A stretch of 64,000 bases of DNA from Carcharhinus amblyrhynchos (lineage: Eukaryota), in the NCBI GenBank assembly GCA_965287045.1, contig OZ336880.1:40796001-40860000 (forward strand), read 5' to 3'. This document shows, piece by piece, positions 54,001 to 57,000 of this stretch. A program made the position numbers. Position 1 is the stretch's first letter, and every line of letters starts with the position of its first letter.

Positions 54001-57000
54001 GTGAAAAGAAGACTACTGCTATACTAATTGTAGAAGGTGGTTGTTTATTATTTTATTTACAAACAGCATCCTGATCCATCCACTTCATGTTTCCGTTCCA
54101 AAATAAGTTTGGTACCTTTTTAAGAAGATCCTAAATTTACTTATTAATAGTAAAATGTTCAGTTTAAAATGTTTAGCTAGTGATTTATACAAACCTTAAC
54201 ACTAGACAGACCAAGTCTGCATGAATTATTGCAAACGTTGCCTCTTGCTGTTATAATTTTTTCAAGTATTTACTTTGCTGAAATTATTAAATCAGTTAAC
54301 ATTTATCCTAATTTTATTCTTGCATAGCTGAAGAATCAAAACCCAAAACAGGTGCAAAAATTCCCACTGATAGCAGTTCAGATAGCACAATAACTGAACA
54401 AAGACCACATATCACACCTGATAGCACACCAGAAGTACAAAAGAAACCATCAAGTCCACCACCGTCTTCAACCAAAAGGCCAACTGGAAAAGAGAAGCTA
54501 CGAAGCCGAGACTATTATCCTGATGTGGTGCCCTTTGACGAATTGATAGACACTGGAGCCATAGCACCGATGTTCTTAGAAAAGCTACCTCCAGAAATCA
54601 TTGTACAAGATGGAGAAGATGTTTTGTTGTTCTGCATCGTAAAAGGTGTACCATCACCTTGTGTACTTTGGCTGTGCAACCAACGCATAGTTGAAGAATC
54701 TTCATTGTGTTCCATTAAACATGATGGGTTACTATGCAGTTTAAAAATGCAAAATGTCTGCCAAAGGCACAGTGGCACTTATTCATGCAAAGCGGTTAAC
54801 TCTGCTGGAGAAACAGCGTGCAACACTCTACTTAGAGTGACAGGTTGGCAATTGCATGCTTTGGTCCTTCCCAATGTGACTTTATCATGCATCTCAGCAC
54901 ATCCTATGGAAAGATTCTTTGCAGAAAATCATCTTGTTGACCTGCGGATTATTGCATTCATTTTTCCTGAAATCAGATTAGGCATGATGAGGCATGTTTG
55001 TTGTTTCGATACAGAGCAAAACGGAGAATGATTTTTTTTTACAAAACCCTGGATTGCCTGAATTATCTTTATGATTCAGTCAACCAGTTGCTTGGTAAAT
55101 CCTTCTAGAAATCACAATTAGCGAATATATTTAATTTTTTGCATGTATATTTTGTATGTCTTTGCATATTAAATGTATTTTGAGTTTCATTTTCCTTTTT
55201 GCATATTTTATTTTGTGGGGAAAAACAGTGATACATTCTTATAATTATATTCAATATTCATTTTCATGCAGAAAAGATTCAAGACAAGATTGAACAACAG
55301 ATAGAAATGGAAGTGAGAGGTAATACTTTTATTATTATTCAATAAACAATTATTTAACTTTGCATTTAATGCTAGGTTTGAACAACTGCTATCAACTTTG
55401 ATATTTTGCCATCATGATAAGTTGTGCTGTGTTACAAAGTATTAAAAAATTACACGTTGTCTATGCCAATCTGATTTACAAACCCAACTTCTTGTTGTCA
55501 TTCTCATTTTGACCTAAACAAAAAAACCCTTTAACATCAAAAATATTTACTTTGCAGGAAATGTTATTTTTTAACCAGTATTAGTTCCTCATATTTCTGC
55601 TGAATTTCAATTTGAAATTACTCATTGTCATAATTGATACACTGCAAAAGGGATATATAGAGTTACATTCAGTAAGTTGTATTCTAACATGAATTATGTA
55701 ATGAGAAGTGGTTAAATGAACTCTCAACTATCTGTCGTTCAATGATTGAATGCTGGAAATATATATTTTAGTGGTGATTACTTGAATCAGTACTTTTGTT
55801 GCTCTCATTTACTTCTGATTTTCCAATAAATTTTTCGATAAAGAACTCACAGGCAATATTTCATAAAGGAACTTTGACGAGGGTCTTTTCCATTTTTAGC
55901 ATTCATTTTCTTCCATTTTCATGACATCAACCTATCCTCATGTATTTACACTGCCTTGCAGATAGCAGTATGTGTTCACGTACGCTGGCATTTTTTTGCA
56001 TAATATTGTGAATCTAGCAACTATATTAGTTCGAATAAACGCCTTCTCATGCAAATTGGAAGGATTACAGTTATGGATGAATTTATTTCCATCTATTGAT
56101 TCCAATTCTAAAAACAATCTCTATCAAACTGGCTGAAAAATTTACCTGTTGTTGAAAAAGGATCAGAAAGGGCGTTTATTCTGCTGTCTGCAAGTCAGGT
56201 AAGAATTGTAATAACCTAGATATCCCCAAATCACAGGGACAGATTTTACATTCAAAAATAAGAAAATTCTTTCATGAGATCACTTTATGCTTTTTTCAAA
56301 ATATACACTCTAATTTGATTTTTGAGAAGAAATTGCAACAGTCTGAAGAAGGAACAAAGAACGAGCGATTTTCCTGCTCAGAATCTTTAAAAAGAAAATG
56401 GTCTTGTGTTTATTCGAACAAATATGGTGAGTGAATTTTTTACAATATTTGTGAAAAAGCTGATGCATTAAGTTCATCATTTCATCATATTAGAGATTTG
56501 TTCTAAATTTAATTCTTATAATGTTTTGAACTGGCTTTTAAGAAACTTCATACAAATTATTTCTTTTTTTTTGCAGAGTTGTTTTTTGGTGCTGGGACAG
56601 AATATTTGGAAAATCGAGAAAACCTGCGTGATGCATTTTCGGATGCCGAAGATTATTTAGATCAGGGAATGGTTTCTGCTGATCGTTGTGCAAGCAGAAC
56701 ATCTTCTATAAGTTCCTGGTCTGAGAATTTCAGGCCATCTTTCACTGAAAAGCTCAAATTCAAATCCGTAATGGAAGGAGAACAAGCTATTTTTAAATGC
56801 AAGTTGGTTGCCAGCCCAGCACCAAAAATTGCATGGTTTCATAACAACAGACCTATATGTAAAGATTCAAGAAGGATTATTAAAATAGAAAGCGTAATGC
56901 ACATTCACAACTCAAGTTTGGAAATCAATAATGTAGAAGAGAAAGATTCAGGGAGTTACAAAATATTTGCAATAAACTCTGAGGGCTCAACAGAGGCAAC

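Follow-up and report, generated by a model that had tools for sequence, protein, structure and literature searches.

The Novex cluster of the titin gene (TTN) provides the closest described counterparts of the exon reported here. Novex-1 (exon 45; 375 nucleotides, nt) is an alternative exon coding for an immunoglobulin-like (Ig) domain, and Novex-2 (exon 46 in human) joins unique sequence to one Ig domain; the latter is an alternative exon as well, and when its donor is left unspliced the transcript runs into a stop (PMC5852582, cited here and below from its exon table, its exon map and excerpts on Novex transcripts). Novex-3 (exon 48) and exon 48' are alternative exons of the same cluster at which translation ends early, giving short titins, and exon 48' (Chen et al. 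2018), the one new exon in print, located between exons 47 and 48, is a precedent for an overlooked exon in this cluster (PMC5852582). The Novex region of TTN is poorly understood and is annotated from the human map. We analyzed a 64,000-nt stretch of the shark Carcharhinus amblyrhynchos (assembly GCA_965287045.1, contig OZ336880.1, positions 40,796,001 to 40,860,000 of the forward strand; hereafter the window, which contains no N), in which an original prediction, made from the sequence alone, had placed an extra Novex-like exon with a cysteine-rich Ig domain. This exon, here called Y, occupies positions 54328-54843; all coordinates are those of the window, plus strand. We assign a probability of roughly 0.7 to the view that Y is a genuine, anciently conserved and alternatively used TTN coding exon, the third unit of the Novex cluster between exons 44 and 47.

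Exon Y is a single open frame of 516 nt (3 x 172). Its acceptor AG at 54326-54327 follows a pyrimidine-rich tract (ctaattttattcttgcatag/CTG, the slash marking the exon boundary), and its donor GT lies at 54844-54845 (CAG/gttggc). The exon is in phase 1-1, with one base of a split codon at each end, and this symmetry lets the frame survive both inclusion and skipping; the neighboring exon 44, exon X and exon 47 are likewise in phase 1. The translation (P0001) comprises 171 full codons (54330-54842), and the exon is distinct in composition, with 42.2% G+C against 28.5% and 32.2% in the flanking introns. Residues 1-78 (54330-54563) form a linker, delimited by composition and predicted disorder, that consists of serine, threonine and proline to 41%, contains three SP/TP sites and no cysteine, and is predicted to be disordered, the predicted local distance difference test score (pLDDT) being below 50 over most of residues 1-86. 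A nearly invariant YYPDVVP motif (residues 62-68) closes the linker just before the Ig domain; P64, D65, V66 and P68 are kept in all ten aligned sequences, and Y62 and V67 in nine.

The I-set Ig domain itself spans residues 79-171 (54564-54842), as defined by a Pfam match, by alignment to titin domains of known structure (PDB 3B43) and by conservation. Residues 85-170 match PF07679 over profile positions 5-90 of 90 with 60.6 bits, against a cut-off of 23.7 (E=1.5e-16). The domain carries eight cysteines, at residues 102, 111, 116, 127, 136, 144, 153 and 164, in the motifs FCIV, SPCV, WLCN, SLCS, LLCS, NVCQ, YSCK and TACN. In the window tblastn detects 13 Ig domains, and this one has more cysteines than any of the other 12, which contain 0-6; it is at most 37% identical to any of them. 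The original prediction of an intact 516-nt phase 1-1 exon and of an I-set Ig domain with exactly these eight motifs is borne out, and so is the composition of its linker, which proved to be 78 rather than about 70 residues long. Among solved structures, titin I65-I70 (3B43) and further Ig segments of titin come nearest; searches of the PDB with Y and X returned generic titin, ROBO and contactin Ig domains and no close orthologue, and a protein atlas search returned generic I-set clusters only. All searches were made exon by exon, with the window exons never joined into a spliced model.

Exon Y lies in TTN. Upstream of it, exon 42 (41616-41900, 285 nt), exon 43 (42332-42457, 126 nt) and exon 44 (51433-51621, 189 nt) are AG/GT-bounded, open and in phase 1, and each has the size published for it in all eight species of Table 1 (PMC5852582). 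Downstream, a 48-nt phase 1-1 candidate for exon 47 runs from 55272, the predicted start, to 55319, and is recognized by its size and by its place before Novex-3; exon 47 is published at 45-57 nt (48 in frog) and intron 47 at 1021-1105 nt (PMC5852582), and the gap between the candidate and the Novex-3 exon measures 1257 nt here. The first, Ig-containing part of the Novex-3 exon (56577-60548) is recognized by size, place and its match to the tortoise model P0192 (Gopherus), which is 69% identical over 56624-57091; because this model joins the Y sequence to the start of the large exon at 56577, we identify the latter as Novex-3. Two intact coding exons, X (53152-54036) and Y, lie between exon 44 and exon 47, together with one decayed Ig relic (52378-52614). 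Exon Y therefore has the placement of a Novex exon, within TTN and between exon 44 and the N2B exon.

The relation of X and Y to the named Novex exons was read indirectly, from sizes and order, with published exon sizes standing for human. A plover model, P0222, which was found by cluster look-up, is the most informative guide. Its segments are, in order, 127 amino acids (aa; a leader of about 33 aa and an Ig domain), 196 aa (about 105 aa of unique sequence and an Ig domain), 173 aa (a linker and a cysteine-rich Ig domain, corresponding to Y) and a 36-aa tail. In chicken, exon 45 measures 375 nt or 125 codons and exon 46 measures 582 nt or 194 codons, exon 46 ranging over 552-582 nt in four tetrapods (PMC5852582), while human Novex-1 and Novex-2 add 125 and 192 aa (excerpt of PMC5123623). 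Of the plover segments, the first fits Novex-1 and the second Novex-2; the third corresponds to no listed exon and must therefore lie in what the table calls intron 46, which is 1898 nt long in chicken (PMC5852582). The original prediction had stated that the human map has no exon between 46 and 47, and in the published exon 42-50 map the interval from exon 44 to Novex-3 indeed contains, by their sizes, exons 45, 46 and 47 alone (PMC5852582); in the literature on the titin Novex region we found no description of an exon between 46 and 47.

Comparison with each described member of the cluster points the same way. Y has the gene region, the phase and the unique-sequence-plus-one-Ig layout of Novex-2, but a Novex-2 orthologue is expected to be 552-582 nt long and to follow Novex-1 directly, whereas Y measures 516-519 nt, is third in order and stands downstream of X, which does fit Novex-2 by size and order. 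The predicted position of Y after Novex-2 agrees with this assignment of X. Novex-1 is an alternative Ig-coding exon of the cluster, as Y is proposed to be, but its equivalent is the 127-aa plover segment, of which the shark has only the relic at 52378-52614. Novex-3 and exon 48' follow exon 47, whereas Y precedes it and has no stop of its own when spliced. On these sizes and positions Y is probably extra to both Novex-1 and Novex-2, and it is most likely an ancestral additional exon of the Novex region. Its sequences are already public, but they are misnamed as separate genes, and the exon is absent from the published exon map.

In 15 named species other than that of the window, an orthologue of Y preserves frame, length (167-173 aa) and sequence; these species are a second shark, gar, four teleosts, two turtles and seven birds. 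The closest orthologue is P0002 (XP_067843003.1) of the shark Heptranchias perlo, annotated as 'myosin light chain kinase, smooth muscle-like', which is 87% identical over the full length. A word-indexed search of longer proteins gave five matches among 573 candidates, of which P0002 alone was specific. A full HMMER scan of 1.84 billion representatives yielded, among the 150 matches listed, 149 generic multi-Ig proteins (25-37% identity) and a single one covering both linker and Ig domain, the penguin model P0139 (residues 7-171), whose cluster mate is the crane model P0157. Four HMMER matches with partial linker cover are insect or nematode obscurin, twitchin or unc-89 and were rejected as orthologues. 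A profile of four Y sequences run against longer proteins gave 22 matches at E<=1e-10 among 8000 scored, eight of them orthologues (Heptranchias, penguin, bustard, kittiwake, hummingbird, spotted gar and two teleosts). A ten-sequence profile run against similarly sized proteins gave 44 matches among 689 candidates, with five named (two turtles, budgerigar, frogfish and pike) and 39 nameless (Logan-sourced, one also ENA). No human sequence was used in these searches. The orthologues are filed as separate small genes under names such as "MLCK-like", "MyBP-H-like", "SPEG-like", "twitchin-like" and "myopalladin-like".

Identity to the window exon is consistently higher in the Ig part than in the linker: 88% and 85% in Heptranchias, 62% and 41% in gar, 61-66% and 32-36% in five birds, and 44-45% and 31% in two teleosts. 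For comparison, constitutive I-band Ig segments are 67-68% identical between elephant shark and human (excerpt of PMC12241362). On the evidence of the aligned sequences, Y is under purifying selection from sharks to birds, and its distribution supports an origin predating the divergence of jawed vertebrates. Of the two origins offered by the original prediction, ancestral or shark-specific, the ancestral one stands, given the orthologues in gar, teleosts, turtles and birds, and the shark-specific one falls.

The cysteine content of the domain is conserved in kind rather than in number. The ten aligned sequences have six to nine cysteines each; C102, C136, C153 and C164 are invariant, C111 occurs in eight, C127 in seven, C116 in five and C144 in the window alone, and a linker cysteine (VVPC) is found in seven sequences, that of the window not among them. 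The predicted eight-cysteine domain is accurate for the window and does not hold as a conserved state; it is a local maximum of a conserved cysteine-rich state. Alignment to the 3B43 domains places C102, C153 and C164 in strands B, F and G, as the CysB/CysF/CysG of titin. The strand assignment agrees with a low-confidence predicted model, which was used for strand order alone and puts C136 in strand E. The same triad occurs in 21 of 101 I-band Ig domains, where it supports disulfide isomerization (excerpt of PMC5766482). Titin triad domains such as I67 and I69 in 3B43 share with Y the I-set fold and the cysteines at B, F and G; unlike them, Y adds the invariant strand-E cysteine and up to four more. 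Because the Y domain keeps the triad, a redox role is plausible, so far as cysteine positions can indicate.

Public protein models bear on how Y is spliced. Nine of them join X to Y exactly at the junction corresponding to 54036/54328 (...IVE/AEE... and ...TVK/AKE...), and three more contain parts of both exons. At the other end, ten models read straight through the Y donor as GW(Q/H)(L/M)H... to a stop 20-62 codons on; of the remainder, one teleost model continues differently, one is garbled and three leave Y mid-domain for other Ig exons. These last three (P0192, Gopherus; P0195, Melopsittacus; P0201, Pelusios), which are Ensembl-derived, exit the cysteine-rich Ig domain and continue in other Ig domains, those of the Novex-3 region. 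Although they resemble projection artefacts, they place Y beside Novex-3 in turtles and a parrot.

The donor and the sequence following it (54844-54858) combine two features that suggest regulation. The donor is GTTGGC, with a T at +3, which is uncommon in vertebrates, and an RBFOX-type motif, TGCATG, lies at 54853-54858, 10 nt into the intron and thus in the proximal downstream position; TGCATG occurs in 0.7% of the 20-nt windows of the stretch. Two further copies lie at 54218, 110 nt upstream of the Y acceptor, and at 55140, 132 nt upstream of the exon-47 candidate. The shared read-through peptide is what GGT-TGG-CAA-xTG-CAT-G encodes: in all ten models GW(Q/H)(L/M)H is followed by A or V, in keeping with xTG-CAT-G, and the penguin change from leucine to methionine keeps the TG. 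Conservation of the read-through can reflect a kept splice site with an RBFOX-type enhancer, a coding tail, or both. In the window the frame past the donor (54843-55031) stays open for 62 codons to a TGA at 55029-55031 and could supply the C-terminal tail of a truncated product; read-through frames of other window exons extend 4-45 codons. The tail is 73% identical between the two sharks, its first 19 residues being identical in Heptranchias; GWQLH is common to the tails, and IIAF to the window and birds. A single polyadenylation-type hexamer by motif match, ATTAAA at 55168-55173, stands between Y and exon 47.

If Y is indeed the third alternative exon of the cluster, the shark order would be a decayed Novex-1 relic, an enlarged Novex-2-like X, and then Y. 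Inclusion of Y would add one I-set Ig domain, preceded by a flexible linker of about 78 aa that can probably be phosphorylated. The buried CysB/CysF/CysG triad of this domain and its further cysteines may make it a spring element with a stiffness that could respond to oxidation. The non-consensus GTTGGC donor together with the conserved TGCATG would constitute a regulated site. With the donor used, Y would join exon 47 in frame; with the donor unused, translation would enter the intron and stop, producing a truncated titin or a short Ig protein. The latter outcome would agree with results of reverse-transcription PCR (RT-PCR), which revealed truncated Novex-2 transcripts of the 'intron 46 retention' kind as well as joint expression of exons 45 and 46 (PMC5852582).

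Other accounts of Y deserve weighing alongside this one. Y might be no more than the already annotated Novex-2 (human exon 46), with X as Novex-1, so that the exon is real and not new. The window has just two intact exons between exon 44 and exon 47, as does the human map; Y has the layout of a linker and one Ig domain; the bird models, which run from X through Y into a read-through, resemble what was reported from the hearts of chicken and frog, where exons 45 and 46 are expressed together and intron 46 is retained (PMC5852582); and the elephant-shark paper names a Novex-I and a Novex-II exon. The sizes clash with this equation at both positions: Y, at 516-519 nt (sharks, gar and birds), is shorter than exon 46 (552-582 nt; 582 in chicken), and the X of birds, at 579-588 nt, is longer than the 375 nt of exon 45. 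Moreover, birds possess a third exon further upstream, 127 aa in length, which fits Novex-1 and whose relic is still present in the shark between X and exon 44. We regard the identity of Y with Novex-2 as unlikely. That Y is a dead or chance open frame without function, as its absence from the published TTN exon map (PMC5852582) might suggest, is scarcely credible: frame, length and an Ig identity of 61-66% are kept from shark to birds, the adjoining Novex-1 relic shows what real loss looks like, and the G+C content sets Y apart from the introns.

A further account treats X and Y as an independent transcription unit nested in TTN, with Y as its last coding exon rather than a titin cassette; transcription would begin either within X or in intron 44/45 and terminate in the intron that follows Y, and the unit would encode a free protein of 300-540 aa with two or three Ig domains. 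The 11 models deposited at NCBI, from 10 species, all place the exons in a small protein of their own outside titin, and the models start inside X or in the Novex-1 region; ten models read through the Y donor to a stop, the tails sharing GWQLH and, in the window and birds, IIAF; and ATTAAA at 55168 is at hand. Telokin/KRP in MYLK and Cronos titin are products of internal promoters. They would be the model for such a unit, as short Ig proteins arising from giant muscle genes, and the X-Y product would then be a titin-derived counterpart of telokin, with the 'intron-retained' end as a real C-terminus and not a failure of splicing. Against this, gene predictors split giant genes when junction reads are scarce, and the starts of the models are merely the first methionine of the open frame. 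The tails diverge fast after about 15-20 residues and are of unequal length, the conservation of GWQLH is equally explained by splice site and TGCATG, and in tetrapods exon 46 has been connected by RT-PCR with exons 42-44 and with exons 47-49 (PMC5852582). A nested unit in general appears doubtful, and its fuller form, an ancient unit running from sharks to birds and perhaps lost in mammals, which would make a cysteine-rich free protein of two or three Ig domains with the read-through tail (GWQLH...IIAF), appears rather improbable as well. Several points nonetheless weigh against an alternatively used third Novex exon, the reading we prefer. None of the 15 public models joins Y to an exon-47-like peptide, and these models are automatic predictions. 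Conservation of TGCATG in other species is read from peptides, not DNA. The length of the read-through frame was rejected as a sign of a coding tail, its 62 codons comparing with 45 and 43 for exons 43 and 44. The four exon-46 sizes come from a flattened table and were assigned to human, chicken, lizard and frog by way of the intron-45 size pattern, and the Novex-II of the elephant-shark paper may itself be Y. The predicted structure of Y is poor, with a mean pLDDT of 52.7 from a ten-sequence alignment. Finally, the matches include no Y from a named mammal, amphibian, squamate or crocodilian, in searches that were non-exhaustive and did not reach beyond titins of about 8000 aa; this absence is weak evidence.

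Should an extra exon be accepted, the ancestral Novex cluster would have included three or more alternative exons coding for Ig domains upstream of exon 47, and the misnamed small genes of sharks, gar, teleosts and birds would be pieces of TTN. Novex-2 transcripts described as retaining intron 46 may then need re-reading, as the 'intron' of non-mammals would hold an exon. The Y Ig domain also offers a naturally cysteine-rich titin domain for testing redox control of stiffness. If mammals carry a copy or relic of Y, it would be relevant to the interpretation of TTN variants. We consider Y to be of moderate interest for titin evolution and annotation, and of more if either the nested-gene reading or a mammalian copy is confirmed.

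The neighbors of Y in the cluster have histories of their own. Exon X (53152-54036, 885 nt) encodes 97 aa of unique sequence and two Ig domains, and by size and order it fits a Novex-2 equivalent enlarged by one Ig domain. X and the second plover segment share the same last Ig domain and begin alike, with DYKVQSIDSQ in the shark and DYTVQALDRQ in the crane. The extra Ig domain, at about 53451-53750 between the unique sequence and the last Ig domain, is present in both sharks and absent from the gar, bird and teleost models; its start resembles that of the single bird Ig domain, which suggests either tandem gain or loss by unequal crossover.

The decayed Novex-1-like relic in intron 44 (52378-52614) was recognized by its match to the first segment of plover P0222; the match takes in the leader and amounts to 42% identity over 79 aa. 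The relic contains an in-frame stop, its core tryptophan is replaced by glycine and its last two strands (F-G) are missing, and we therefore take Novex-1 to be dead in the shark. Between the two sharks, the relic region is identical at 9 of 17 positions and its frame is broken; the first 33 residues of Heptranchias P0002 are drawn from the place equivalent to the relic. A possible identity of the first bustard Ig domain with exon 44 was rejected, as that domain shows 32% identity to shark exon 44 and 53% to the relic, both of which occur in the shark.

Elsewhere in the window, a 108-nt phase-1 intron at 60549-60656 (CAAG/gtaaga ... ttttccag/AA) appears to split the coding region of Novex-3, and both sides of it are Ig-coding in the same frame; all eight species of Table 1 have this region as one exon (PMC5852582). 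Intron 43 (42458-51432) measures about 9 kb, compared with published lengths of 0.6-5 kb in other species, and contains many long open frames on both strands, including proline-rich frames at 43266-43892, which suggests repeat or transposon content. In the part of the gene that encodes the Z-disc region, the stretch at about 10200-10760, inside a large exon at 9923-10759, is a tandem repeat: overlapping open frames there show a repeated unit, which in one frame is of the ELPELQELLELSLLN type.

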